Under the pieces are notes generated by a model. That model worked only from the letters and a program-made list of their open reading frames with translations, was not told the origin of the DNA and did no database searches. Of a stretch of 64,000 nt of DNA, positions 15,051 through 58,841 are shown in pieces. The position numbers and the translations under genes are program-made. The stretch is from Bacilli bacterium (GTDB taxonomy: Bacteria; Bacillota_I; Bacilli_A; RFN20; CAG-449): contig DBGCPK010000017.1 of NCBI GenBank assembly GCA_048359995.1, forward strand, positions 137,240-201,239, in the 5' to 3' direction. Every line of letters begins with the position of its first letter. Position 1 is the stretch's first letter.

Positions 15051-16979
15051 ATGGCGCGGCAAGTTTTAAGAGGTACGGCTCGCCCGAAAAACGGAAAGAA
15101 AACCTTTTTCCGCCTGATAGCTTATTTCAAAAAGCATCTGTGGCAGTTTGCGATCGTCATTCTGATGATCGTGGTACAGGCGCTGACGTCGCTTTTCGCC
15201 GTCCGCTGCCTCAACGTTTTGATCGACGTCGACATCCCGAATTTGATCGACGCCACCAACGGCGTGCTGGGAGTCGATCTGAATGCGGCGGTCAAAGCTT
15301 TCAACCGAGAAATTCTTTTGATGGGAGTCATCTACCTTTTCAGCATCGTATCGACCTACGTTTACAATCTCCTGATGGCGTATATATCCAGAAGCATTTT
15401 GGCCGAAATCCGCGGCGATATCTTCGTCCATATGGAAAAACTACCCGTTCGCTTTTTCGATAGTCACACGCACGGCGAACTGATGAGTTATTATACCAAC
15501 GACGTCGACGCAATCCGTCAAATGCTCTCTCAGGCGATCCCGCAGATTATTTCCAGCGTGATTACGGTGGTTTCCACTTTCATATATATGCTAATCGCCT
15601 CTTTGGAATTGACTTTGGTATGCGTGGTTATGGTGGTCGTCATTCTCTTGGCTTCCTCGAAGATCGCCAAGAGTTCGGGAAAATATTTCGTGCTTCAACA
15701 GGCGGACTTGGGAAGACTCAACGGATATATCGAGGAGATGATTGAAGGTCAGAAGGTCATCAAAGTCTTCTGCCATGAGAAAAAAGCCAACGAAGATTTT
15801 GACCGAATCAACGAAGATCTGACTGTCTCTTACGCCAAAGCCAACGGCGCGGCTTTTGCTTTCGGACCGTTGACCAACAATCTCAACCATATTCACTACG
15901 CGGTTACCGCTTTGGTCGGCGCCGTTATGATGGTGATGAATTTCAGCTTATTGCCGAGTCAGTCGATGAGCGCGGGATTGTTGATCTCGTTCCTGATTCT
16001 GACGAGACAGTTCGGAATGCCGATTTCGCAAATTTCTCAGCAATTCAATTCCATTATCGTCGCTTTGGCTTCCAGCGAAAGGGTGTTTTCCGTCATCGAT
16101 ATGCCTCCTGAAAAAGACGAAGGTTACGTAACGTTGACTTACGGAAAAAAGGACGAATCGGGAAATATCACCGAAACGGTGGAGAAAACGCCGCTTCCGC
16201 TTTGGAAGCATCCGCATTCGGACGGTACGGTAACGTTGGAAGTCGTCAAGGGAGACGTCGTCTTCGATCACGTCGATTTCGGTTACGACGAACGGAAGCA
16301 GATTCTCCACGACATTTCGCTTTACGCCAAGCCGGGACAAAAAATCGCTTTTGTCGGTTCGACAGGCGCGGGAAAGACGACGATCACCAACTTGATCAAC
16401 CGCTTTTACGACGTGCAGGACGGAAAGATCCGCATCGACGGCATCAATATCAACAAAATTCGGAAGTCCGATCTGAGAAGAACGCAGTCGATCGTCCTTC
16501 AAGATACGCATTTGTTTTCCGACACGGTGTTGGAAAATATCCGTTACGGTCGGCTGGACGCCACAGATGAAGAGTGCATCCGCGCGGCGAAATTAGCGAA
16601 CGCGCACTACTTCATCTCGCATCTTCCGGAGGGCTATCATACGATGTTGGTGAACGACGCGGGAAATTTGTCGCAAGGGCAACGGCAATTGATCGCCATC
16701 GCCCGCGCCGCCGTAGCCAATCCGGCGATTCTGATCCTCGATGAGGCAACATCGTCGATCGATACGAGAACGGAGAGGTTGATCGAAAAAGGCATGGATC
16801 AGTTGATGGAAGGAAGAACCGTGTTTGTCATCGCCCATCGCCTTTCGACGGTGAGAAATTCGCAAGCCATCATGGTTTTGGAAAACGGAAGAATCATCGA
16901 AAGAGGCGATCACGAGTCATTGATTCGTCAAAACGGCAAATACTATCAATTGTATACGGGAGCATTCGAGTTGGATTAG
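15051..16979 (+). CDS. ABC exporter, fused permease-ATPase subunit 2 (heterodimer partner)
   Basis: Walker A GSTGAGKTT, signature LSQGQRQ, Walker B ILDEATS. Confidence 0.9.
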   Translation: MARQVLRGTARPKNGKKTFFRLIAYFKKHLWQFAIVILMIVVQALTSLFAVRCLNVLIDVDIPNLIDATNGVLGVDLNAAVKAFNREILLMGVIYLFSIVSTYVYNLLMAYISRSILAEIRGDIFVHMEKLPVRFFDSHTHGELMSYYTNDVDAIRQMLSQAIPQIISSVITVVSTFIYMLIASLELTLVCVVMVVVILLASSKIAKSSGKYFVLQQADLGRLNGYIEEMIEGQKVIKVFCHEKKANEDFDRINEDLTVSYAKANGAAFAFGPLTNNLNHIHYAVTALVGAVMMVMNFSLLPSQSMSAGLLISFLILTRQFGMPISQISQQFNSIIVALASSERVFSVIDMPPEKDEGYVTLTYGKKDESGNITETVEKTPLPLWKHPHSDGTVTLEVVKGDVVFDHVDFGYDERKQILHDISLYAKPGQKIAFVGSTGAGKTTITNLINRFYDVQDGKIRIDGININKIRKSDLRRTQSIVLQDTHLFSDTVLENIRYGRLDATDEECIRAAKLANAHYFISHLPEGYHTMLVNDAGNLSQGQRQLIAIARAAVANPAILILDEATSSIDTRTERLIEKGMDQLMEGRTVFVIAHRLSTVRNSQAIMVLENGRIIERGDHESLIRQNGKYYQLYTGAFELD

Positions 16980-16991
16980 GAGGAACGAAAG

Positions 16992-17912
16992 ATGCTAGTC
17001 AAAATTTCGGAAGAAGTGCAAAGAGCCTTGAAAGAAGGACTACCGGTCGTGGCTTTGGAGTCGACGATCATTTCGCATGGTATGCCTTATCCCGAGAATG
17101 TGGAGACGGCGTTGAAAGTCGAAGAGATCATACGCGAAAACGGTGCGATTCCGGCGACGATCGGCATCATCGAAGGAGTTCCGATCGTGGGAATGAGTCC
17201 GGAAGAAATCGAGGAATTCGGAAAGAGAAAAGGGATTCTGAAAGCGTCGCGAAGAGACGTTCCGGTCATCATGAGCAAAAAAGCGTGGGGAGCGACGACG
17301 GTCGCCACGACGATGATTTTCGCTTCTTATGCCGGCATCGAAGTTTTTGTAACCGGAGGAATCGGCGGCGTTCACAAGAACGCTCCGCAGACCTTCGACA
17401 TCTCCGCGGATTTGCAAGAATTGGCGCATACCGATGTGACGGTCGTCTGCGCCGGCGCGAAAGCGATACTGGATCTGCCTTTGACGTTGGAGTATCTGGA
17501 AACGTTCGGCGTTCCGGTTTTGGGATACCGATCGGATCATCTCGGCGCATTTTATTCGTCTGATTCCGGATTGAACGTCGATTATCGGGCGGACAGCCCG
17601 GAAGAGATCGCCCGAACGATTCTTTACAAAAGAAAACTGGGTCTCAAAGGCGGGATTTTGATCTCCAATCCGATTCCGAAAGAGCATGAAATTCCGAACG
17701 AAAAGATCAATGCGTTCATCGAATCGGCATTGAAAGACGCCGAAGAGAATCGCATTCACGGAAAGGATATCACCCCTTATCTTCTTTCCCACATCAAAGA
17801 ACAAACGCACGGCGAATCCCTGAAAGCGAATATTCAGTTGGTCTATCACAATGCGAAAGTCGGCGCTTGCATCGCCAAAGCCTACGCGGAAATTCAAAAG
17901 AAAGAAGTATAG
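16992..17912 (+). CDS. psuG: Pseudouridine-5'-phosphate glycosidase
   Basis: Indigoidine synthase A-like family: LESTIISHGMPYP and VFVTGGIGGVH. Confidence 0.85.
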   Translation: MLVKISEEVQRALKEGLPVVALESTIISHGMPYPENVETALKVEEIIRENGAIPATIGIIEGVPIVGMSPEEIEEFGKRKGILKASRRDVPVIMSKKAWGATTVATTMIFASYAGIEVFVTGGIGGVHKNAPQTFDISADLQELAHTDVTVVCAGAKAILDLPLTLEYLETFGVPVLGYRSDHLGAFYSSDSGLNVDYRADSPEEIARTILYKRKLGLKGGILISNPIPKEHEIPNEKINAFIESALKDAEENRIHGKDITPYLLSHIKEQTHGESLKANIQLVYHNAKVGACIAKAYAEIQKKEV

Positions 17913-17941
17913 AACGGAATCAAATTATCGCAACCTGAGTT

Positions 17942-18931
17942 TCATAAATGTCGATTCAGATAATCTTCGATCAAAAGACATTCTTTTTCGGAGGCCTTTT
18001 TTCGGCATTCTTCCGATGTATCTGCCGAAATTCCGACGATTTCATCGCCCCAGAAAGATTCGGTTACCTGATATTTTCCGCCTGTTTCTTCGATGACGTC
18101 GTTGACGAAAACGGCCATATCGATTTTTTCTCCGTTTCGATAAGTCACGATGGTCGGCACTCTTCCGTTGCGATAGGAATCGAACTGAAAATGCGATTTG
18201 AATTGAGTCCATTCTTCCGTACTGCGGATTTCTCCGACTTCGAACAGCGTCAGTTCTTTTCCGTTTTCCGCGAGATAATCGTCGAGAAAACGGCTTTTGA
18301 ATTCCTGACAATCCGGGCAGTCATACCAAGAAAAGAGAATGCTGACTTCGGACGAACTCTGGATCATTTGTTCGATTTTAGACGATGAAAGCGAATTGAA
18401 ACGGTACATAATTTCCTCCCCGTAATAGTCGTATACTTCTGTATCGTTGCCGATGAAGTAAGGAGATGTCGAGCAGTATTTTCCGATCTGTTCGGAAAAA
18501 GATTTGGCAGAAGCGTAAATCTTCGGATCGTATTCGATATAACGGACATCTTTTCCGTCGTCGAAGAGCAACAGTGAAGCGCTGGTAACGATGCTTCTGA
18601 TGCGATATTCTTCGTCATCGGAAAGGAGTTCGGCCGTCTTCCGATATTCTTGAATTTCAATCCAGTAGATCGGAAAAGAGTTTTTTCGGATAAACGATTT
18701 CATCGGCTCTTTGATGCTTTGGCAGGTCTCGCAACCGACCTGTGCGATCGCCAAAACGAAATCTTTTTTCTGCGCGATCAAATCCAGCAAATCTCCGCTG
18801 TCGGTGTAAATGAACGTATCGAGCTGATTTACGCGATCGACAAACATCGTCGCCTCGTTCTTTTTCGAAGAACAGGAAAAAAGAAAGAGAAAATTCAGAA
18901 CGACGAAACATCGAAAAAACTTTTGAAACAT
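17942..18931 (-). CDS. Lipoprotein with two thioredoxin-like CxxC segments
   Basis: Lipobox LFSCSS. CETC and CPDC motifs about 130 aa apart. Confidence 0.5.
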   Translation of the reverse strand: MFQKFFRCFVVLNFLFLFSCSSKKNEATMFVDRVNQLDTFIYTDSGDLLDLIAQKKDFVLAIAQVGCETCQSIKEPMKSFIRKNSFPIYWIEIQEYRKTAELLSDDEEYRIRSIVTSASLLLFDDGKDVRYIEYDPKIYASAKSFSEQIGKYCSTSPYFIGNDTEVYDYYGEEIMYRFNSLSSSKIEQMIQSSSEVSILFSWYDCPDCQEFKSRFLDDYLAENGKELTLFEVGEIRSTEEWTQFKSHFQFDSYRNGRVPTIVTYRNGEKIDMAVFVNDVIEETGGKYQVTESFWGDEIVGISADTSEECRKKASEKECLLIEDYLNRHL

Positions 18932-19060
18932 AAAAGAACCTCTTTTTCATTATAGCACTTCGGAAAACGGTGCGAAACAGTTTCTTTTCGGATTTTATTT
19001 TACATCTTTCGACTTTTCACCGTGATACATTACTGGTGAAAGGGAAATTCGGAGGGAAAA

Positions 19061-19609
19061 ATGAATAATCAGGATTACGAAGTGTTTCTTTTGGCGCGGA
19101 ACTACGCCGATCGGGGAGATTACGAAAAAGCGGTCGAGTTGCTGGAACTTCTTTCGCGAAAGGGAAACCGAAAAGCGATTTTCGAACTGGCGATGCTTTA
19201 CAACGATTTTCAGCCGGAAATTCATCGCCACAAAGCGGTCAATCTGTTCACTCTCGCGGGCGAACTAGGGTATCCGGACAGTTATTATTATTTGGGAAAG
19301 ATCTATTATGAAAAGAAAGAATACGCGGAAGCCTATCGCTTTTTCGAAAAAGGGAAGACCAAAGCGGAAAGCCACCTCTATTTGGGAAAAATCATTTTGG
19401 AAACGCAGTTGAAAAACGTATCCAAAAGAGTCGCTTTCGTGAATTTTCTGGAAGGAAGCAAGAGAAAGGTATACGAATGCGACTACTATCTGGCAATATG
19501 CTATCGTTTCGGTTATGGAATCCGAAAAGACGCGCAGAAAGCGGAATTCTACTTGAAAAAGGCACAGGCGCATCGAATCGACGACAGTTATCATCTTTTG
19601 AAAAACTGA
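19061..19609 (+). CDS. Sel1/TPR-like repeat protein
   Basis: Repeated A-x-YYLG/LYLGKIY helical repeats. No signal peptide. Confidence 0.55.
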   Translation: MNNQDYEVFLLARNYADRGDYEKAVELLELLSRKGNRKAIFELAMLYNDFQPEIHRHKAVNLFTLAGELGYPDSYYYLGKIYYEKKEYAEAYRFFEKGKTKAESHLYLGKIILETQLKNVSKRVAFVNFLEGSKRKVYECDYYLAICYRFGYGIRKDAQKAEFYLKKAQAHRIDDSYHLLKN

Positions 19610-19732
19610 TCGAAGCGAAATGATTCGATAATTCTTTACTTATTTCTTTTAATATTCCGTCACAAAACATTGAAATTCACCGGAGATTATGGCACAATTT
19701 TAGTTGTGGTAAAGAAAGGATTACTGACAGTT

Positions 19733-20434
19733 ATGTACAATTACATTTATACAAATGACGTCAAGGAAGAATGCGTCGTCAGAAAAGGCTGCGATCACGG
19801 ACCTGCACCGATTCCGGAAGAAGGCAAATGGGTTAAATCGAAGCAAATCACCGATATCTCGGCTTTGAGCCACGGCGTCGGCTGGTGCGCTCCGCAGCAA
19901 GGCGCGTGCAAATTGACTTTGAATGTGAAAGAAGGCGTGATCGAAGAAGCGTTGATTGAAACCATCGGCTGCTCGGGCATGACTCATTCCGCGGCTATGG
20001 CTGCGGAAATTCTGCAAGGAAAGACGATTCTCGAAGCGCTCAACACGGATTTGGTCTGCGACGCCATCAACGTGGCGATGAGGGAAATCTTCAAGCAGTT
20101 GGTCTACGGTCGTTCTCAGACGGCTTTCTCGGAAGGGGGACTTCCGATCGGATCTTCGCTCGACGATCTCGGGAAAGGACTTCGGAGTCAGATCGGAACG
20201 ATGTTCGGCACGAAGTTGAAAGGACCGCGCTATTTGGAAATGGCGGAAGGTTATGTGCTGAAAATCGCCCTTGACGACAACGACGAAATCTGCGGCTATC
20301 AATACGTCAATCTCGGCAAGATGATGGAAGCGATCAAAAAGGGAACCGATCCGAAAGTCGCTTACGAATCCTGCATCGGGAAATACGGACGTTTCGACGA
20401 TGCGCCGAAACACATCGATCCGAGAAAAGAATAG
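19733..20434 (+). CDS. NifU/IscU-like Fe-S scaffold-domain protein (divergent)
   Basis: GWCAPQQGAC...IGCSGMTHSAAMA...LVCDAIN matches the IscU three-Cys pattern. Confidence 0.65.
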   Translation: MYNYIYTNDVKEECVVRKGCDHGPAPIPEEGKWVKSKQITDISALSHGVGWCAPQQGACKLTLNVKEGVIEEALIETIGCSGMTHSAAMAAEILQGKTILEALNTDLVCDAINVAMREIFKQLVYGRSQTAFSEGGLPIGSSLDDLGKGLRSQIGTMFGTKLKGPRYLEMAEGYVLKIALDDNDEICGYQYVNLGKMMEAIKKGTDPKVAYESCIGKYGRFDDAPKHIDPRKE

Positions 20435-20445
20435 GAGAAACGAGT

Positions 20446-21447
20446 ATGGCAACCTTTGAAAATCAAGAACGTCGGATGGACGGCATCAATGAATGTTTGA
20501 AAAAATACGGCATCGCGAGTTTGGACGAAGCCAGAGAAATCTGTTTGTCCAAAGGAATCGATGTGGAGAAAATCGTGCTTGGCGTTCAGCCGATCGCTTT
20601 CCAAAACGCCGTGTGGGCGTACACTTTGGGAACGGCGATCGCGTTGAAAGAGAATGCGGCTACCGCATCCGAAGCTTCGCACTTGGTCGGTGTGGGCTTA
20701 CAGGCTTTCTGCATTCCGGGGTCGGTCGCGGAAACCCGTAAAGTCGGACTCGGACACGGCGATTTAGGCGCAATGCTGCTCGACGAGAAGACCGAATGCT
20801 TTTGCTTCTTGGCCGGTCACGAATCTTTCGCCGCGGCGGAAGGTGCGATCGGTATCGCCAGAAACGCCAATAAAGTGAGAGTCAAGCCGCTTCGCGTCGT
20901 GTTAAACGGTTTGGGGAAAGACGCGGCTTACATCATCTCCCGAATCAACGGATTCACCTACGTTCAGACCGAATACGACTTCGAGCATTCCAAATTGAAC
21001 GTGGTTAGAGAAGTTCCGTTCTCGACCGGAGAAAGAAGCGCGATCAAATGTTATGGCGCGGACGAAGTCAACGAGGGCGTAGCGATCATGATTCACGAAA
21101 AAGTCGGTGTATCGATCACAGGAAACTCGACCAATCCGGTTCGATTCCAGCATTTGGTAGCGGGCACCTACAAGAAATGGGCTAACGAAAATAACTTCAA
21201 GTATTTCTCGGTGGCTTCCGGAGGCGGAACTGGAAGAACATTGCATCCGGACAATATGGGCGCGGGACCTTCTTCTTACGGCTTGACCGATACGTTGGGA
21301 AGAGTGCACGGAGATGCTCAATTTGCCGGTTCGTCCTCTGTTCCGGCTCACGTGGAAATGATGGGGCTGATCGGAATGGGCAACAACCCGATGGTCGGCG
21401 CGACGGTTTCCTGCGCAGTGGCAGTGAGTCTCGCACTGAAAAAATAA
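20446..21447 (+). CDS. GGGtGRT family protein (uncharacterised)
   Basis: Contains ASGGGTGRTLHPDNMGAGP. Confidence 0.8.
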   Translation: MATFENQERRMDGINECLKKYGIASLDEAREICLSKGIDVEKIVLGVQPIAFQNAVWAYTLGTAIALKENAATASEASHLVGVGLQAFCIPGSVAETRKVGLGHGDLGAMLLDEKTECFCFLAGHESFAAAEGAIGIARNANKVRVKPLRVVLNGLGKDAAYIISRINGFTYVQTEYDFEHSKLNVVREVPFSTGERSAIKCYGADEVNEGVAIMIHEKVGVSITGNSTNPVRFQHLVAGTYKKWANENNFKYFSVASGGGTGRTLHPDNMGAGPSSYGLTDTLGRVHGDAQFAGSSSVPAHVEMMGLIGMGNNPMVGATVSCAVAVSLALKK

Positions 21448-51628: not shown

Positions 51629-51661
51629 CGCAAAAAAAGAAAGGAAAACAAATTCCTTTCT
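51629..51661 (-). terminator. Intrinsic terminator of the hydrogenase operon
   Basis: Minus strand AAGAAAGGAA...TTCCTTTCTT followed by TTTTT. Confidence 0.55.
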
Positions 51662-51681
51662 TGCGGAAGACGGAACGGAAT

Positions 51682-53412
51682 TCAACTTTTCGAACTGTCG
51701 TGAAAGTGCGTATGAAGAAGTTCGTGCGCTTTTTCCGACCCCGGCTTTCCCAAAAATTCTTCGTAGATCTTCCGGATCGCCTCGTTTTCGGAGGCGACGC
51801 GGACTTTTTGCTCTTTGTCGATCGAGGAAACCGCAGTCTTCCTGCTTCGTAAGACGAAATCCTGATTTTCATCGGAGGAAACGATTTGACCTCCGCCGTT
51901 GATGCAACCGCCCGGACAAGCCATTACTTCGATCGCGTCGAAACGGGCGATTCCGGTTCGGATTCCTTCCAGAACAGCTTTGACGTTTTTCAAGCCCGAG
52001 ACGATCCCCAAGCGCAGTTCTTTTCCGTTTAAAGAGATCGCGGCTTCTATAACGCCATGGAAGACCGCGCTGTTTGAAAAGCGAATCTCCTTTGACGTAC
52101 CCGATAGCGTGCGGACGACGCTTTCCATCACGCCGCCGGTATTGGCGAAGAGAACGCCGCCTCCGCTGAAAGAGGCGAACGGGGGATCGAATTCCGCTTC
52201 ATCGATTTCGTTCAGGAGAACGCCGTGGCGTTTCAGAAGTTCGACGTATTCTTTAACCGTGATCACCAGATCGACGTTTTTCAGCCCGTCGTTTGCCAGT
52301 TCTTCGCGATCGGCCTCGCGTTTTTTGGCTAAACAAGGCATCAAGGCTACGGAGACGATGCTTTTCGGATCGACGTTGGCTTTCTCCGCGTAATAGGTTT
52401 TGATCATCGCACCGAGCATTTCCATCGGAGATTTGCATGAAGAAGGAAGACAAATCAGATCGGGATATTGAATTTCCAAGTGCTTGATCCATCCCGGACA
52501 GCAGGAGGTGATCAAAGGGAGATTTCGGTTTTCTTCAAGTCGTCGAAGAAGTTCGTCGGCTTCTTCCATTACCGTCAGATCGGCGCCGAAATTCGTGTCG
52601 AAAACTTTGTCGAAGCCGACGGCTTTTAACGAAGCAACCATCTTTTTGCTGACATCGGTTCCGGCAGGAAAGTTGAAAGCTTCTCCGAGGGTCACCCGCG
52701 TCGCCGGTGCGGTTTGGATCACGACGGTTTTGGTCGGATCGTTCAGATAATTTTCGAGTCGGTCCAACGCGCTGCTCTGCATCAAAGCACCTGTCGGACA
52801 GACTTGAACGCACTGACCGCAAGTGATGCACTTCGAAGGATCGGAGATGCGCAGTTTGAAATTGCGGTAAGACGGAGAAATCGCCCGAATGCCCTGCAAG
52901 GAATCGCAGACCGCGACGCAGCGACAGCATCGAATGCACTTCGACGCGTTTCGGAAAAGACCGCGCACGTCCGTATAACGGTTTTCATAAGAATGCTCAC
53001 CTTGAAAAGGAATCTCCCGAACGCCGAGTTCTTTCGCCAGATCCTGCAAACGGCAATCGCCGTTTTTCGGGCAGAGCAGACAATCGTTCGGATGATCCGA
53101 CAAGAGCAAGGTCACCGTTTTTTTTCTCGCTTCGACGACTTTCGGAGAGTCGGTGAAGATTTCCATACCGTCGGCGACTTCGGTGGAACAAGCGGCAAAG
53201 AGTTCGTCGCGTCCCTTGATTTCTACTAAACAAACCCGACAAGAAGACGGTCGGTGTTCCAATTGAATTTCCGGTCGGGACAGATAGCAGAGCGTCGGTA
53301 TCCGAATCCCGCGCTTTCGTGCAGCTTTCAGTATCGTCATCGGGGTATCTTCCCGATATTCTTTTCCGTTGATTTTGAAATTCACAATCCGATCCTCCGT
53401 TCTATCTGACAA
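51682..53412 (-). CDS. hydA: [FeFe]-hydrogenase catalytic subunit (HydA, M3-type)
   Basis: N-terminal 2Fe-2S domain, 4Fe-4S domains, and H-cluster motifs TSCCPGW, MPCLAKKREA and EVMACPGGCINGGGQ. Confidence 0.9.
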   Translation of the reverse strand: MSDRTEDRIVNFKINGKEYREDTPMTILKAARKRGIRIPTLCYLSRPEIQLEHRPSSCRVCLVEIKGRDELFAACSTEVADGMEIFTDSPKVVEARKKTVTLLLSDHPNDCLLCPKNGDCRLQDLAKELGVREIPFQGEHSYENRYTDVRGLFRNASKCIRCCRCVAVCDSLQGIRAISPSYRNFKLRISDPSKCITCGQCVQVCPTGALMQSSALDRLENYLNDPTKTVVIQTAPATRVTLGEAFNFPAGTDVSKKMVASLKAVGFDKVFDTNFGADLTVMEEADELLRRLEENRNLPLITSCCPGWIKHLEIQYPDLICLPSSCKSPMEMLGAMIKTYYAEKANVDPKSIVSVALMPCLAKKREADREELANDGLKNVDLVITVKEYVELLKRHGVLLNEIDEAEFDPPFASFSGGGVLFANTGGVMESVVRTLSGTSKEIRFSNSAVFHGVIEAAISLNGKELRLGIVSGLKNVKAVLEGIRTGIARFDAIEVMACPGGCINGGGQIVSSDENQDFVLRSRKTAVSSIDKEQKVRVASENEAIRKIYEEFLGKPGSEKAHELLHTHFHDSSKS

Positions 53413-54853
53413 TCGCTTTCGGTTTCGCCGGACATTTAGCCAGACAAGTGCCGCATTTGACGCATTTTTTCGAGTCGATCGCGAATGCGTTCAAACGCGG
53501 ATTCTTCCCGAAGAGATCGGTTTTGAAGATGGCGTTCACAGGGCAGTTTCTCGCGCACATTCCGCAACCGAGACAATTCGGAGTAACGATCCGATACTGC
53601 ACCAATGCCTTACACGAACCGGCAGGGCATTTTTTGTCGGCGTGGGCAAGGAATTCGCCTTCGAATTTTTCCAAAGCGGACAGGACGATGCCTGCGGACT
53701 TCTTTCCCAAAGCACAGAGCGAGGTTTGGCGGACGTAGAGGGACAGTTCCCTGATTCGGCGGACGTCTTCTTCGCTTCCTTTTCCTCCGATCAAAAGATC
53801 CAAGGCTTCCAAAATTCTTTTGATGCCGATCCGACACGGCGTGCATTTTCCGCAGGTCTCTTCATACAGAGAGCCGAGCGTAAAGCGGAGACGGCTGACG
53901 ATGCAGTCGTTCGCGTCGAAAAAGGTGATGTTGCCATCTTGGAATCGCGATTTCTCCACGCGGAGAATGTCCACATCGAGTTCGTTTTCGTCAAAAAAGG
54001 TATCGCCGATTAAGGCAGCCTTGAATTCTTTCTTATCCTTGATTCCGCCGGCTTGCTCGATGATTGTCCGAAGCGTCGTTTCCGAAGTATATTCGCTTAT
54101 TCCTGCTCGGGTGATCTGACCTGTCAAAGCGAAAAGGGCGGGAATTTCATCATCTTCGGTTTCCCGGGCAATCGGAAGTTGGATAAGTGCTTCGGAAGGA
54201 AAAATAAAAGCATGCGGATAAAGGTCGGGATAAACCGGTTCGGCTCTTCTTCCGTGCAGACTCGCTTTAAAAGCCGAATCGTCCATATGAACGAAATTCC
54301 GCATTCCGATCCGGATTCGGATGTTCAGCGAAAAGTCGATGCCCAGAATTCTTTCACCGACGAGACCGATTTCCCGAGCGTCGAGCAGTGCTTTCTTCAA
54401 GATCTCGGCGGCTTCTCTGTCGCGTTCGTCGATATAAATCATCGCCTCTTCGACCTTTGCAATCCGTGCGGCGATGAGTATGCTCTCGACGATGAGATGG
54501 GGATTCTTTGCGGCGATCGTCTTTCCGAAAAACGTTTCGGGATCGTGATCGGCCAAAGATGTGACGAGAACTTTATCGGGCGAAGAAATACCGGCAATTT
54601 GTTCCAATTTTTCGAGAAGAAGACTTTGCGATTGTCGATCTGTGATCGCTTTCGAACGAATTTTATCGCCGATTTCCGGATGTAGAAGAAGTTCGACGAA
54701 AGCACGGTAAGCACCTTTTCCGATCGCTTCTTCAAGATTCGTCGGATCTTCGATATCGAAGCGGCTTAAAATGGTATTCCGCTTTTTTTCTCCGTATTCC
54801 GCGATTCGTTCCAGGGAAAACGCGGAAAAGTTTTCGGGTGAATGAAATTTCAT
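53402..54853 (-). CDS. NuoF/HydB-like Fe-S subunit with degenerate FMN/NADH site
   Basis: C-terminal CGKCTPCR plus two CxxCxxCxxxCP motifs. The GxGGAGF and GAGAYICGEE motifs are absent. Confidence 0.75.
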   Translation of the reverse strand: MKFHSPENFSAFSLERIAEYGEKKRNTILSRFDIEDPTNLEEAIGKGAYRAFVELLLHPEIGDKIRSKAITDRQSQSLLLEKLEQIAGISSPDKVLVTSLADHDPETFFGKTIAAKNPHLIVESILIAARIAKVEEAMIYIDERDREAAEILKKALLDAREIGLVGERILGIDFSLNIRIRIGMRNFVHMDDSAFKASLHGRRAEPVYPDLYPHAFIFPSEALIQLPIARETEDDEIPALFALTGQITRAGISEYTSETTLRTIIEQAGGIKDKKEFKAALIGDTFFDENELDVDILRVEKSRFQDGNITFFDANDCIVSRLRFTLGSLYEETCGKCTPCRIGIKRILEALDLLIGGKGSEEDVRRIRELSLYVRQTSLCALGKKSAGIVLSALEKFEGEFLAHADKKCPAGSCKALVQYRIVTPNCLGCGMCARNCPVNAIFKTDLFGKNPRLNAFAIDSKKCVKCGTCLAKCPAKPKAIVR

Positions 54854-54862
54854 AGGTACTCC

Positions 54863-55342
54863 TTACTGTCGATTCAGAATTTCTTCGATCTCTTCGACTT
54901 TGACATTGCCGTAGATCCGGTCGTTGATTTGGACGACGGGAGCGAGGGAACACTTTCCGACACAGCGCAACGTCGTCAGCGTGAATTTTCCGTCCGATGT
55001 GGTTTCGCCGTTCTTGATTTTCAGCACTTCCTCGCACTTTTCCAGAACTTTTGCCGCGCCTTTGACATAGCAAGCGGTTCCTAAACATACATTGACGACA
55101 TTCGCGCCCTTGGGAAGCAGAGAGAAGCGATCGCATCCGGAGACCACGCCGAAAACTTCGGAAAGATTTAGATCGAAGCGATCGGCGACGAATTGCTGCA
55201 CCTTCAAGGGAAGATAGCCGAAAATCCTTTGGGCTTCGCAAAGAACATCGAACAAATCGTCGCGGGACTTCTCTTTCGCATATTCATCGAGTTGATGAAA
55301 CATCTCTTCGTTAGTTTGCATAATTCTTACCTCAGCAACCAT
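54863..55342 (-). CDS. hydC: NuoE/HydC-like thioredoxin-like [2Fe-2S] subunit
   Basis: CLGTACYVKG...CVGKCSLAPV. Confidence 0.8.
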   Translation of the reverse strand: MVAEVRIMQTNEEMFHQLDEYAKEKSRDDLFDVLCEAQRIFGYLPLKVQQFVADRFDLNLSEVFGVVSGCDRFSLLPKGANVVNVCLGTACYVKGAAKVLEKCEEVLKIKNGETTSDGKFTLTTLRCVGKCSLAPVVQINDRIYGNVKVEEIEEILNRQ

Positions 55343-55393: not shown

Positions 55394-56554
55394 TTAATGG
55401 TAGCGGATCGTAACGATCTTGCCGCAGTCTTCCAGCGCCTTTTTCAGCGACTCGACGATTTTCATCTTCATCGAAAGGTCGATCGGCAAATCCTTATGCG
55501 CGGGGTTCAACGTTGTGCCGACGAAAAGGTGGACGTGGCTCGCCTGTTTGAGAATCAGATTGGCGATCAAATTCGCGCCGTCTTTCTGTTTCAGCGATTT
55601 GTCGGAAACGCTTTGGGTGTCGAGATATTTCTGCGCCAAATTCAGCACTTTTCCCAGCGTGATGACGCCTTCGGTAACCAAATCGACGCCTTCGATGCGC
55701 GCCGTAGGAGGTACATCGCTGTCAAGGTAGATCAGAGAAGTTTGGATTTCTTTGTTCAAATAGCGGGAAATGATCTTGGAAGTTGTTCCGCCGCAGACGA
55801 TTTTCACACCTTCCTGATTCATAAATTGCTCGGCGACCGAGAAATCGTCTTCCGGATTCATCGGAGGTCCGACTAAAATGTTGACGCTTTTCGGAGAGAG
55901 AATTTTCAACGCGGCGATCGTCGTATCGTCGCCGGGTTCTCCCATATAAAGCGCGTCGCAGGATTCGCCGATCAAAGCCGCGATCTGCCGCGCCGACATA
56001 TCCGGAGTGTAGTTGGCGCAGAGATACTGGGCGATATCCTCGATCGACCATCCTAAATTCATCGTCTTTCCGATGCCGGCGTGAGGCGCGCCGTCGGAAC
56101 AGAAAACCATCGCGTCGCCTTCTTCGGCGGCGATTTCCGAATAGAAAATGGTTTTGTTCATAATCTCTTTCTTCTGTCTTTTCAAAGGAAAAACCTTTCC
56201 GTTTCGCAAATAAATCAACGGGGGATTGTCGAATTCGAAAATATAGCCTTTTCCTTCGTGATCGACGTGAATGACGGTGAATGTCGAATAGGCGACCTTA
56301 CGCACGGAACAGACAGGCAATGTGGAAATCACGGAAGAAACGCATTCTTCGATTTCCGCGCCGTTGGCCAACATCAGGCAGAGCAATTTCGATGTCAAGG
56401 TCGCCAAAATATTGGCTTTCACTCCGGAACCCAATCCGTCGGCGAGAACGATCGTGGTTCCGTTTTCTTTCCGCACGATCTCGACCTTGTCGCCGCAGAG
56501 TTCTTCTCCTACGTGATTCAAAGAAACGTAGCCGTCGTCGATAAAGTACTTCAT
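55394..56554 (-). CDS. PP2C/SpoIIE-type serine phosphatase
   Basis: VLADGLGSGVKA and MVFCSDGAPHAG metal-binding Asp motifs. Confidence 0.8.
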   Translation of the reverse strand: MKYFIDDGYVSLNHVGEELCGDKVEIVRKENGTTIVLADGLGSGVKANILATLTSKLLCLMLANGAEIEECVSSVISTLPVCSVRKVAYSTFTVIHVDHEGKGYIFEFDNPPLIYLRNGKVFPLKRQKKEIMNKTIFYSEIAAEEGDAMVFCSDGAPHAGIGKTMNLGWSIEDIAQYLCANYTPDMSARQIAALIGESCDALYMGEPGDDTTIAALKILSPKSVNILVGPPMNPEDDFSVAEQFMNQEGVKIVCGGTTSKIISRYLNKEIQTSLIYLDSDVPPTARIEGVDLVTEGVITLGKVLNLAQKYLDTQSVSDKSLKQKDGANLIANLILKQASHVHLFVGTTLNPAHKDLPIDLSMKMKIVESLKKALEDCGKIVTIRYH

Positions 56555-56555
56555 C

Positions 56556-58223
56556 TTATTCTTCCTTCAAACTATTTTTAAAATTGACCAGAGCGATTTT
56601 GGCTTCGGCCGTCGATTCGCCCAAAAGGGAAGCGATTTCCTGCACTGCGGCCATCTGTTTGTTGATAACTTGATCGGTAACTTCGATCATTTCCTTTCGC
56701 AGCGCTTTCATCTTTTCGTCGTCGAGGGTTTCGCGGGTTACGTCTTTATAAATGGCGAAAGCCACGCCGTGTTCCTTGACGATCGTAATCGAGACGTCGA
56801 AATACTTTTGATTCCGGTCGTTGAAGACGACGACGGAATCCACGTTTTCGCCCTTTTCCATCGCGATCATCAACTCGGGAAGATCGATGAATTCCTGATA
56901 AAAGCGCCCGATGGCGTTTTTGTCGATTTGAAGATATTCAAAAGACCGTGCATTGGCATCGACCAAAATTCCTTCGCGATTGATCGTGATGATTCCGTTC
57001 GGGGTATGAGTGATGATTTCGTTGGAGATCGATTCGGCTTTGTTTTTCAGATAAGGAAGGCAGTATTCCGGATCGGCCAAACCGTTGAATACGGCAATCG
57101 CCTTTTCGCGGCACGTGTTGTAACCGCAGGCGCCGCAGTTGATTTCGTCTTCTTTCCGATACTTGAATATGCGGTTGAGAATCTTGCGAATTTCTGCTTC
57201 ACTCGGTATTTTCATGTGATTGACCAAAGGAGGATAAGTGTGCGAAAGATCGACCTCGCCGCGGCTCTCTTCGATCGGGCATCCGCGATCTTTTTTCGCA
57301 TATCGGCGAACCAGATAATTGTCCTTGATCTTGTTGTTTTCGGAAATCCGCGCCGGTCCGTTGACGCATCCGCCTTCGCACATATTCATTTCGATGAAAA
57401 GGTGATCGAGTTCGTCGATGTTTTCCAAGATATCCTTGATCGCCGCCACCCCGTCGATTGTGACAAAGTCGTAATTTTCGTGCGTCGAAACAAAAGATTT
57501 GATGATCCCCCGCTGAATCGGATAGAATCTCGCCGGATTGCGGGACGGTTCGTCTTCGCTTTCTTCAAAACCGATATTGTGAAGGGCGAACATCTTCGCG
57601 ATCTCCTCGAAAGTCAATGCATATTCGACGAAAGGGGATTCTTTCGCTTCTTTTTTCTTGGCGATGCACGGACCGACGAAGACGACTTTGACTTCTTCTC
57701 CGAGTTCTTTTTTGATGATCTCGGCGTGAGCGATCATCGGCGAAACGACAGGCGCGACATATTTCAAAGCGTCCGGATAATTTCTTTGAATGAAAGCAAC
57801 GGCGGAAGGACAGGCGGTGGATATCAACGAACGGAAAGCGCCTCCGTCAAGCAGAGAACCATAGGCTTTGGTGACGAAATACGCGCCGACAGCCGTCTCT
57901 TCGACGTAAGCGAAGCCGAGTTTCTTGCAGGCGGAAGCGAAAGAGGAGAAAGAAGAAACGCCGAAATTCGCGATAAAAGAAGGCGCAACGCTTAATGCGA
58001 CACGTCCCGGAAATTCGCGGATCAGGCGTTCGACATTTTCGACATCGGAGACGACCCTTTTGGCGTTCTGCGGGCATACATTCACGCAATGTCCGCAGAG
58101 AATGCAGTTTTCTTCGACGATCTCGGCTTTATTATCGACAAATCGTATGGCTTTGACGGGACATTTTCTCAAACAGGAGTAGCAATCCTTGCAGGAACTG
58201 CTTTCAAAAGAAAGATACTTCAT
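56556..58223 (-). CDS. hydS: Sensory-type [FeFe]-hydrogenase with C-terminal PAS domain (HydS/HfsB-like)
   Basis: Two N-terminal 4Fe-4S motifs. H-cluster motifs STACPSA, VGPCIAKKKEA and EMNMCEGGCVNGP. Extra CGACGYNTC cluster. C-terminal PAS. Confidence 0.8.
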   Translation of the reverse strand: MKYLSFESSSCKDCYSCLRKCPVKAIRFVDNKAEIVEENCILCGHCVNVCPQNAKRVVSDVENVERLIREFPGRVALSVAPSFIANFGVSSFSSFASACKKLGFAYVEETAVGAYFVTKAYGSLLDGGAFRSLISTACPSAVAFIQRNYPDALKYVAPVVSPMIAHAEIIKKELGEEVKVVFVGPCIAKKKEAKESPFVEYALTFEEIAKMFALHNIGFEESEDEPSRNPARFYPIQRGIIKSFVSTHENYDFVTIDGVAAIKDILENIDELDHLFIEMNMCEGGCVNGPARISENNKIKDNYLVRRYAKKDRGCPIEESRGEVDLSHTYPPLVNHMKIPSEAEIRKILNRIFKYRKEDEINCGACGYNTCREKAIAVFNGLADPEYCLPYLKNKAESISNEIITHTPNGIITINREGILVDANARSFEYLQIDKNAIGRFYQEFIDLPELMIAMEKGENVDSVVVFNDRNQKYFDVSITIVKEHGVAFAIYKDVTRETLDDEKMKALRKEMIEVTDQVINKQMAAVQEIASLLGESTAEAKIALVNFKNSLKEE

Positions 58224-58226
58224 ACA

Positions 58227-58472
58227 TTACCTCAACGCGCTCAGGACTTTTTCCGCGAAAATCACGTCGACGTTGTCCGCGTTGACGCCGTAAACCGGTT
58301 GCTGATCGATCATCATCGAAACTCCTTCGGCGCAATGACCTAAGCAGAACGAGGCGGAGAGTTCGATGCGGTTTTCCGGATCGTGAATGCGGATCAGTTC
58401 TTGAATTCGGGTGATCACTTCCCGACTGCCTTTCAGATGACAGGACGATCCGACGCAAATGGATATTTTCAT
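58227..58472 (-). CDS. Small thioredoxin-like [2Fe-2S] ferredoxin (NuoE-like half)
   Basis: CVGSSC ... CLGHC in an 81-aa product. AAGAGG RBS. Confidence 0.6.
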   Translation of the reverse strand: MKISICVGSSCHLKGSREVITRIQELIRIHDPENRIELSASFCLGHCAEGVSMMIDQQPVYGVNADNVDVIFAEKVLSALR

Positions 58473-58841
58473 AAAAAGACCTCTTTTTCATTATAATACA
58501 ATCGACGGCAAAAAAAAATAATTTCGAAAACGGAAGAAGGGAAATCCTAAAAACCGAAGAATCAACGAAATTACAACGAAAATCAATCGATAAACGGAAT
58601 GGCGCGCATCTGATCTTTGACCTGCGCATTTTCATATTCGGTTATCCTATCATTTTTCGTACACGATAACCACAATGATATTCCGCCATCTTTACCTTTC
58701 ATCTTCATTTGCACCATTTTATTAAGTTCCGATCATATGTCACACTCGTTCTCGGTGTTTCACCCTATTTTTGAGCGGATTGTGTGGATTATTTGCCGGA
58801 TAAATGGTAGAATAAATTTCGATTGAACGGGATGTGGAAGA

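Follow-up and report, generated by a model that had tools for sequence, protein, structure and literature searches.

A HydB homologue with degenerate flavin and NADH motifs in a HydS/PP2C-linked [FeFe] hydrogenase operon of uncultured Bacilli

In HydABC, an [FeFe] hydrogenase that bifurcates electrons, the electron path runs from the H-cluster over the clusters of HydA to an N3-like cluster located about 6 Å from the flavin mononucleotide (FMN) of HydB (PMC10021017; PMC9499530). From FMN it leads to the cluster of HydC (C1) and to the B2 cluster, about 15 Å off, and, after a conformational switch, to the C-terminal ferredoxin domain and finally to ferredoxin (PMC10021017; PMC9499530). FMN is the sole link of the N3-like cluster (B1) to this HydC/ferredoxin branch (PMC10021017). 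Once B2 is removed, bifurcation drops about 10-fold and the affinity for NAD(P)+ is no longer under redox control, and deletion of the C-terminal ferredoxin domain results in low bifurcation activity (PMC10021017; PMC9499530). The flavin is thus held to be both the site for nicotinamide adenine dinucleotide (NAD(H)) and the bifurcation hub of HydABC. In Thermoanaerobacterium (hfsABCD) and R. albus (HydS-HydA2), a HydS-type sensor and a serine phosphatase are encoded together with a presumed ferredoxin-linked hydrogenase, and a separate bifurcating HydABC (Hyd) is present elsewhere in the genome (PMC11837493, PMC5707799). The subject of this work is a six-gene operon, fdx81-hydS-pp2c-hydC-hydB*-hydA (Table 1), in a 64-kb stretch of contig DBGCPK010000017.1 from a Bacilli bacterium (the window), which encodes a HydB/NuoF homologue, here termed HydB*, that has neither the N-terminal [2Fe-2S] domain nor the sequence signatures for FMN and NADH. 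With moderate confidence, we take the predicted HydAB*C complex to be a diverged, HydS/PP2C-linked copy of HydABC that is non-bifurcating, uses ferredoxin only and functions beside a canonical enzyme.

The loss of the cofactor signatures, first proposed in a first-pass annotation of the window, is evident from alignments of HydB* with canonical HydB proteins of 631-633 residues (A1; A2, 43 sequences) and with the HydB chains of known structure (A. woodii, T. kivui, T. maritima), all of which agree with the original placements. In the region of the glycine-rich FMN loop GLRGRGGAGFPTG pairs with AITDRQSQSLLLE, such that the loop R198-G204 and the stacking phenylalanine F205 described for T. kivui (PMC10021017) correspond to TDRQSQS and L in HydB*. 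The canonical NADEGDPGAF pairs with LADHDPETF, the NADH motif GxGxFxCGEETAL (GAGAFVCGEETAL) is replaced by GMRNFVHMDDSAF, and GGPSGGC is cut to GD and TF around a three-residue gap. Deletions of 8 and 10 residues follow the EP that trails the former NADH motif, beside the pocket. An intact FMN, DEGDPG-loop or NADH motif elsewhere would have overturned this assignment, and none was found when the whole protein was searched with regular expressions. Comparison with the Complex1_51K profile of Pfam gave 39.8 bits for HydB* versus 157.6 bits for a canonical relative; the cut-off of 31.2 is passed by what is left of the domain, over profile positions 23-130. The score on TIGR01959 (nuoF) is 149.6, below the cut-off of 558.65, while NADH_4Fe-4S (79.1 bits) and the Fer4 families give normal scores and Fer4_7 is also matched.

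HydB* lacks the first approximately 125 residues of its canonical counterparts, which form the [2Fe-2S] domain (B2) with its four cysteines. There is no room for such a domain ahead of the gene because the gap between hydC and hydB* measures only 9 nucleotides. All metal ligands beyond B2 are kept (16/16), again in agreement with the first-pass annotation, which had pointed out the retained CGKCTPCR cluster and the two ferredoxin-type motifs. Four of these ligands are the cysteines of N3 (C334/C337/C340/C380), four are candidates for binding Zn in a Cys3His pattern (C317/H404/C409/C414), and the remaining eight are cysteines that make up the two [4Fe-4S] motifs. The N3 and Zn ligand residues are invariant across both alignments A1 and A2, and the spacing of the latter equals that of the Zn site C113/H199/C205/C210 of CbA5H (PMC11760498). 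Of the features by which a bifurcating HydABC/BfuB is recognized, the FMN loop (G-R-G-G-A-G-F), the NAD(H) motifs and the B2 domain are all absent, and the N3-like site, the Cys3His Zn site, the C-terminal 2x[4Fe-4S] domain and the HydC and H-cluster HydA partners are all present. Overall, HydB* retains just 35% of the columns that are invariant in canonical HydB proteins, versus 48 of 49 such columns in residues 405-483, the ferredoxin domain. An AlphaFold2 model, calculated from an input alignment dominated by canonical sequences, has a mean predicted local distance difference test (pLDDT) value of 74 and a template modelling (TM) score of 0.78 to T. kivui HydB (8a6t_B), which is suggestive of a retained NuoF fold. 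Among other short stretches, the pLDDT falls below 50 at the former cofactor loops 70-77, 102-114 and 184-212. The genes hydC and hydB* share a reading frame, split by TAA plus 9 nucleotides (window 54853-54865), and the tblastn alignment of a canonical HydB consequently continues across the stop, pairing the HydB N-terminal domain with the homologous C-terminal domain of HydC.

The hydB* gene is not an assembly artefact since its structure recurs in independent assemblies, two from the same species (L005, L020) and two from a sister species (L001, L006), and the frame is intact in every one of them. In the sister species, too, the six genes form an operon, and its neighbourhood is the same; L001, L005 and L006 share the gene order. 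Among 5.8 billion clustered proteins only two clusters represent the HydB* form, one with 98% identity (same species) and one with 69-71% (sister species), and the next-best matches are canonical HydB proteins with about 40% identity. Between the window and the sister species HydB* is 71% identical, with a ratio of nonsynonymous to synonymous substitution rates (dN/dS) of 0.155 when compared with L001; dS is about 1 in this comparison, that is near saturation, and all dN/dS values are therefore approximate. The ratio is lowest in the ferredoxin domain (0.05) and the N3 region (residues 323-404; 0.09) and higher in the former flavin half (0.19) and the SLBB part (0.26). For comparison, HydA has a dN/dS of 0.12, and pp2c is 95% identical to the sister copy with a dN/dS of 0.03. 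hydB* is under purifying selection and not decaying.

This selection extends to the former pocket. At equal dN/dS, the former cofactor loops are 79% identical between window and sister species versus 65% for the rest of the former flavin domain, and the new pocket sequence is therefore constrained. The stretch that replaces the NADEGDPGAF loop shares 12 of 13 residues with its sister-species counterpart. The conserved new loops in the old pocket read TDRQSxx, ADxDPETFFGKTIA and HMDDSAFKASLxGRRxEPVYPDxYPH. Residues 184-214 (54212-54304), the sequence MRNFVHMDDSAFKASLHGRRAEPVYPDLYPH that took the place of the NADH/FMN loop, are 79% conserved between the species, above the surrounding domain, and no known cofactor accounts for this stretch.

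Whether the genome holds a second, canonical hydB bears on the interpretation of HydB*, and the first-pass annotation had named a canonical copy pairing with the hydA of the operon as a possible refutation. In the 64-kb window there is no second hydB; tblastn with a canonical HydB hits HydB* only. A genome scan with one genome per species (GTDB genome set) represented the sister species by the metagenome-assembled genome (MAG) HGM10897, in which the degenerate operon resides on contig 53 (L006) and a stand-alone canonical operon on contig 6 (L013); the window species itself is absent from this set. The latter encodes HydC (154 residues), HydB (631 residues, all motifs and the N-terminal [2Fe-2S] domain present) and HydA (573 residues). 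A canonical hydB thus exists in the sister genome, but it belongs to a hydC-hydB-hydA operon of its own and nothing indicates pairing with the hydA of the degenerate operon. Both loci are native to one genome, as the GC content (51.7% for L013 vs 51.5% for L006) and tetranucleotide profiles (r = 0.98) agree and each hyd locus has the same GC content at third codon positions as the genes around it. The 90% clusters of canonical HydB and HydA fall into one group 99-100% identical to L013 and another with 96-97% identity (P0330 for HydB, P0347 for HydA), a distance that matches MalQ between the two species (97%). The window species probably also carries the canonical operon, as the source of the 96-97% group, the sole pointer to such an operon. 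The loci of P0036, P0032, P0039 and P0025, which are the nearest homologues to the HydB of L013 (L021-L025, L030-L032), were considered as the operon of the window species and rejected; they are syntenic with L013 but have a GC content of 28-30% and belong to other relatives. In one of these loci, L024 (2824-4410, on a short public contig), the stand-alone hydA is split into open reading frames of 268 and 255 codons, probably by a frameshift or an assembly error. The GC content of the window is 46% and that of the sister genome 51.5%, versus 27-31% in the nearest relatives with canonical operons (L002-L014 except L006 and L013, L021-L025, L030-L032), which amounts to a large shift in composition across a narrow clade.

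The two copies within HGM10897 have evolved at very different rates. Stand-alone HydB, HydC and HydA show mean identities of 84%, 82% and 65% to canonical relatives, versus 40%, 56% and 54% for the sensor-linked HydB*, HydC and HydA. As the stand-alone copies remain conserved in the same genome and under the same mutational regime, the acceleration is specific to the sensor-linked HydCBA copy. The sensor genes are not accelerated: HydS is 61-67% identical to its relatives, and the value for the window versus L002 (64%) resembles that for two canonical relatives (61%). In neighbour-joining trees the degenerate lineage is placed on a long branch outside all canonical sequences (200/200 bootstraps for HydB) and is not sister to L013. 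In the same trees, canonical HydA, HydB and HydC do not group by whether their operon is sensor-linked or stand-alone, and the sensor-linked proteins therefore do not constitute an old paralogue class. The degenerate copy could be an old paralogue or part of a vertically inherited sensor-linked operon whose HydCBA genes accelerated after a second copy had become available; of the two, the latter is favoured by the normal rate of the sensor genes.

The relatives also clarify the role of the small gene that heads the operon. The 81-residue [2Fe-2S] protein noted in the first-pass annotation is real (Table 1), but its description as the lost domain of HydB does not hold. Sensor-linked operons of relatives (L002, L003, L004, L008, L009, L014) have the same order, fdx81-hydS-pp2c-hydC-hydB-hydA, and contain a first gene for 81-83 residues in addition to a HydB of 632-633 residues with its own N-terminal [2Fe-2S] domain. 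The window protein is 55-63% identical to these small proteins encoded ahead of hydS and 90% to the sister copy, versus just 22-29% to HydB N-terminal domains and 23-28% to HydC. As the relatives hold both modules and identities follow this pattern, the gene is an ancestral component of the HydS sensor module. HydB, for its part, simply lost its domain by deletion. The HydS orthologues of L002 and L003 give a weak match to PAS_8. In L004, the canonical sensor-linked hyd operon is followed about 1.4 kb downstream by a type II-A CRISPR-Cas locus (cas9, cas1, cas2, csn2; 15068-20902), with one gene for a major facilitator superfamily transporter in between; this locus is unrelated to HydB*.

Taken together, the HydCBA part of the operon would represent a fast-diverged copy of the electron-bifurcating HydABC of related Bacilli, whose HydB* would have lost the FMN/NAD(H) site and B2 and kept the N3-like [4Fe-4S] cluster, the Zn hinge and the C-terminal 2x[4Fe-4S] domain. 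Since FMN is the only connection between the N3-like cluster and the HydC/ferredoxin branch, NADH-dependent bifurcation by HydAB*C is very unlikely on the published mechanism (PMC10021017), in line with what the first-pass annotation had put forward for a flavin-less B subunit. The complex is thus predicted to be unable to oxidise NADH or to bifurcate. Because the ferredoxin domain is near-perfectly conserved, ferredoxin would still be a partner, and a purely ferredoxin-linked complex, also suggested earlier, is the most plausible reading. HydAB*C may accordingly be pictured as a ferredoxin-coupled, non-bifurcating hydrogenase with HydB* as its ferredoxin-docking iron-sulfur subunit. HydS and PP2C could control its expression or activity, and the complex would work beside the canonical bifurcating enzyme in a division of labour as in Hfs plus Hyd or R. 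albus HydA2/HydS plus HydABC.

Several alternatives have to be weighed against this picture. The high divergence of HydB* could be taken to indicate a decaying relic that drifts after a canonical HydABC made it redundant, with HydA acting alone with ferredoxin like clostridial CpI. Indeed, HydB* is the fastest-evolving protein of the operon, with 71% identity between window and sister species versus 83-95% for the others, HydB is normally the most conserved operon product in canonical relatives (85%), and the majority of canonical-invariant columns are lost. On the other hand, the low dN/dS, with values of 0.05-0.09 in the Fe-S domains, the frame intact in all assemblies, the strong and conserved start signal, the complete set of remaining metal ligands, the almost unchanged ferredoxin domain and the former cofactor loops, which are better conserved than their surroundings, lead us to reject a pseudogene and make a relic distinctly unlikely. 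If the constrained loops instead formed a non-canonical pocket that still binds flavin or NAD(H), the complex might continue to bifurcate. Such a pocket would be compatible with the modelled NuoF fold, and D104-P105 (D232-P233 in T. kivui) as well as several core residues are kept. However, every glycine of the FMN loop and the stacking phenylalanine are replaced, GEET of the NADH motif has become MDDS, GGPSGG is deleted along with 18 residues beside the pocket, the tuner of NAD(P)+ affinity, B2, is absent, and the Complex1_51K score is a fraction of that of the canonical relative. We consider retained flavin or NAD(H) binding very improbable.

The constant association with the sensor genes invites a different explanation, in which HydB*, perhaps together with HydC, would be a regulatory or scaffold part of the HydS/PP2C module, a phosphorylated target of PP2C or a redox input, and not a catalytic electron wire. 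In every case it is the degenerate copy that adjoins fdx81-hydS-pp2c, the sequence TDRQSQS that replaces the glycine-rich loop is rich in serine and threonine, and no known cofactor role accounts for the conservation of the new pocket sequence. This explanation is nevertheless unlikely: HydA keeps all catalytic and cluster residues at low dN/dS, as expected if the operon still encodes a working hydrogenase, the same sensor module adjoins a fully canonical HydABC in relatives, so that the linkage does not require a regulatory HydB, and a kinase gene is absent from the operon. The idea that HydB's N-terminal [2Fe-2S] domain became detached and is now the separate first gene can appeal to the fact that both modules are thioredoxin-like [2Fe-2S] proteins. 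It is hardly tenable and was rejected, given that canonical sensor-linked operons hold the small gene and the HydB N-terminal domain side by side and that the small protein resembles its counterparts ahead of hydS far more closely than it resembles HydB.

A number of points weigh against a ferredoxin-only HydAB*C as well. The absence of bound flavin from HydB* is deduced from its sequence. Without FMN, the clusters of HydC and of the ferredoxin domain look electrically cut off from HydA: their distance to the N3-like cluster would be too great, unless remodelling and shortening of the pocket have altered the geometry. The strong conservation of exactly these clusters is not fully explained by a ferredoxin-only model, and the longest of the conserved pocket sequences (HMDDSAF and onwards) could signal that another ligand is bound or that a new function has arisen. 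A second, canonical operon is documented for the sister genome and probable for that of the window. In addition, the trees fit an old paralogue and a fast-evolving orthologue alike, and long-branch attraction is possible. A more far-reaching proposal, which we regard as doubtful, is that the pocket was rebuilt and not merely lost, to provide a flavin-independent path between ferredoxin and N3, a site for another ligand or cofactor, or a Ser/Thr phospho-switch read by PP2C; together with other degenerate BfuB-like proteins, HydB* would then belong to an unrecognised flavin-free class of Bfu-derived electron-transfer proteins.

A ferredoxin-only HydAB*C would be of interest beyond the organisms studied here. 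It would constitute a natural HydABC that is devoid of the flavin site and B2 while its other metal sites remain under selection, and hence a test of what the remaining Fe-S architecture, which includes HydC, the Zn hinge and the ferredoxin domain, is capable of by itself. Uncultured Bacilli (MAGs of relatives are labelled as human gut, HGM and HGUT) may have turned a sensor-linked HydABC into a ferredoxin-only enzyme and kept a canonical copy, and the two-enzyme logic would then equal that of R. albus and Thermoanaerobacterium. There is also a consequence for annotation: hydrogenase classifiers place an enzyme in Group A3 (bifurcating) if HydB is present, and the operon would score as bifurcating although it is almost certainly incapable of using NADH.

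The six minus-strand genes are tightly packed, and their Pfam and NCBIfam assignments are as expected (Table 1). A promoter-like site ahead of the first gene, a hairpin behind hydA and the absence of a further minus-strand promoter-like site between them in a consensus scan fit with a single transcription unit; promoter-like sites are no commoner in the region than in shuffled sequence, and the promoter call is weak evidence. For hydC, translation probably starts at Met8 (55321), yielding 152 residues, and orthologues begin at the corresponding MKTNEEMF; all four cluster cysteines (C86/C91/C127/C131) are kept. The ATG of hydB* is preceded at a distance of 5 nucleotides by the Shine-Dalgarno sequence AAGGAG, which overlaps the hydC stop codon TAA. 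The probable start of hydA is the GTG at 53385 (567 residues), with GGAGG 8 nucleotides ahead, and the sister-species hydA is called from the equivalent GTG. All 24 invariant cysteines and histidines of HydA are present, including those of the H-cluster motifs TSCCP, MPCxxK and MACPGGC. A mechanically called open reading frame for hydA begins at a TTG (53412) and overlaps hydB* by 11 nucleotides, and the public call in L005 uses an ATG 24 codons further in, which would truncate the N-terminal [2Fe-2S] fold.

Table 1. Positions of the genes, HydB* regions and putative signals of the hydrogenase operon in the window
Feature	Position	Strand	Evidence or remark
fdx81, first gene; thioredoxin-like [2Fe-2S] protein (81 aa)	58227..58472	minus	Pfam 2Fe-2S_thioredx, 40.2 bits
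hydS; HydS-type putative H2-sensing [FeFe] hydrogenase homologue (555 aa)	56556..58223	minus	Fe_hyd_lg_C, 165.8 bits, plus FeS and Fer4 domains
pp2c; PP2C/SpoIIE-type serine phosphatase (386 aa)	55394..56554	minus	Pfam SpoIIE, 44.2 bits
hydC; NuoE-like [2Fe-2S] subunit	54863..55342	minus	Pfam 2Fe-2S_thioredx, 141.3 bits
hydB*; HydB/NuoF homologue (483 aa) lacking the N-terminal [2Fe-2S] domain and the motifs for flavin and NADH	53402..54853	minus	
hydA; catalytic [FeFe] hydrogenase subunit	51682..53385	minus	NF040763, 700.3 bits; Fe_hyd_lg_C, 294 bits
HydB* residues 70-81, former FMN glycine-rich loop	54611..54646	minus	ITDRQSQSLLLE in place of LRGRGGAGFPTG
HydB* residues 99-108, former NADEGDPGAF loop, now SLADHDPETF	54530..54559	minus	alignments
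HydB* residues 183-195, former NADH/FMN motif GAGAFVCGEETAL, now GMRNFVHMDDSAF	54269..54307	minus	alignment
HydB* residues 317-414, four-helix region with N3-type [4Fe-4S] cysteines and candidate Zn ligands	53612..53905	minus	
HydB* residues 422-483, ferredoxin-like 2x[4Fe-4S] domain, putative ferredoxin docking/electron entry	53405..53590	minus	Pfam Fer4_7
Promoter-like site before the operon (GTGACA, 16 nt, TAAAAT)	58716..58743	minus	10/12 consensus positions
Terminator-like hairpin, 10-bp stem followed by T run, 20 nt past the hydA stop	51637..51662	minus	consensus match only

Degenerate flavin sites are not confined to HydB*. In a full HMMER scan, 5050 matches were obtained among 1.84 billion cluster representatives, and the best 150 of these contain many full-length HydB/NuoF-like proteins with degenerate FMN/NADH motifs and retained N3, Zn and ferredoxin cysteines. 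The genomic context was read for three such cases. In L027 (7545-13130) and L028 (3859-9450), a NuoE-like BfuC, a degenerate BfuB and a BfuA-like GltD fusion protein of 1135 residues are encoded in an Nfn/Stn-type operon; the N-terminal domain of the BfuB-like protein is devoid of its cysteines, and the BfuA-like protein has the domains Fer2_4, Fer4_20 and Pyr_redox_2 (GltD-like). In L026, a degenerate HydB-like gene resides beside a gene for an old-yellow-enzyme-like (Oxidored_FMN/Pyr_redox_2) reductase, and in L029 the degenerate gene stands alone. Since degenerate motifs are seen in several unrelated contexts, flavin-site loss is recurrent in the family. A subgroup in alignment A3 (P0198, P0202, P0225, P0288, P0297, P0322), one member of which is encoded in L026, has the C-terminal tail KAGxVKPxTPxEPIPVGxWKKR in common. 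Short HydB matches of 402-489 residues were considered as further forms without the N-terminal domain and rejected as truncated gene calls of canonical proteins. The searchable literature offers nothing specific on a flavin-less HydB in a HydABC complex, and broad reviews that cover the Bfu family or non-bifurcating HydB do not describe loss of the flavin site. A remark on NuoF2 of Nitrospina is the sole precedent found (PMC3578206).

Among structurally characterized proteins, HydB* is most readily compared with HydB (BfuB) of the HydABC complexes from T. maritima (7P5H), A. woodii (7Q4V) and T. kivui (8A6T). It shares with them the partners, a NuoE-like HydC and an M3-type HydA, the modelled fold (TM 0.7-0.8), the N3-like [4Fe-4S] site, the Cys3His Zn site and the C-terminal 2x[4Fe-4S] domain, and is 37-42% identical to the canonical HydB proteins of relatives. 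It differs by the lack of the FMN loop, the NADH motif, GGPSGG and B2 and by the deletions beside the pocket. With the Hfs and HydA2-HydS type of system the window operon has in common that a HydS-type sensor and PP2C are encoded with the hydrogenase. However, the catalytic component there is a single HydA2/HfsD polypeptide, whereas here the putative ferredoxin-linked enzyme is a HydA of the HydABC type (NF040763, 700 bits) with HydC and HydB*. The separate bifurcating HydABC of these organisms has its counterpart in the stand-alone operon of HGM10897 and, judged by the 96-97% protein group, probably in the window genome.

CbA5H from Clostridium beijerinckii (8ZQD, 9F46) contains a flavin-less module of SLBB, four-helix Zn and 2x[4Fe-4S] domains that shares homology with the C-terminal two thirds of HydB (PMC11760498), and in phmmer comparisons it matches HydB* residues 241-476. 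The CbA5H module is fused to the H-domain and has neither an N3 cluster nor a remnant of the flavin domain (PMC11760498), while HydB* is a separate subunit with the N3 site and a degenerate Rossmann-like flavin domain still present. By analogy, CbA5H indicates that a HydB-like SLBB-Zn-ferredoxin module can serve a hydrogenase without a flavin domain (PMC11760498). NuoF2 of Nitrospina gracilis is likewise a HydB-type NuoF annotated without FMN site and with extra ferredoxin-like clusters, and has been proposed to be ferredoxin-linked (PMC3578206). In contrast to HydB*, it is encoded in a complex I-like operon without a hydrogenase and reportedly keeps the [2Fe-2S] and NADH-binding domains (PMC3578206). 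Finally, the HydAB(C) enzymes of Syntrophomonas wolfei and Syntrophus aciditrophicus are non-bifurcating relatives of HydABC. They contain FMN and use NADH without ferredoxin (PMC7311640), and their B subunits do not possess the extra Fe-S clusters (PMC9304861). HydB* presents the reverse situation, in which the ferredoxin clusters were kept and the flavin would have been lost.

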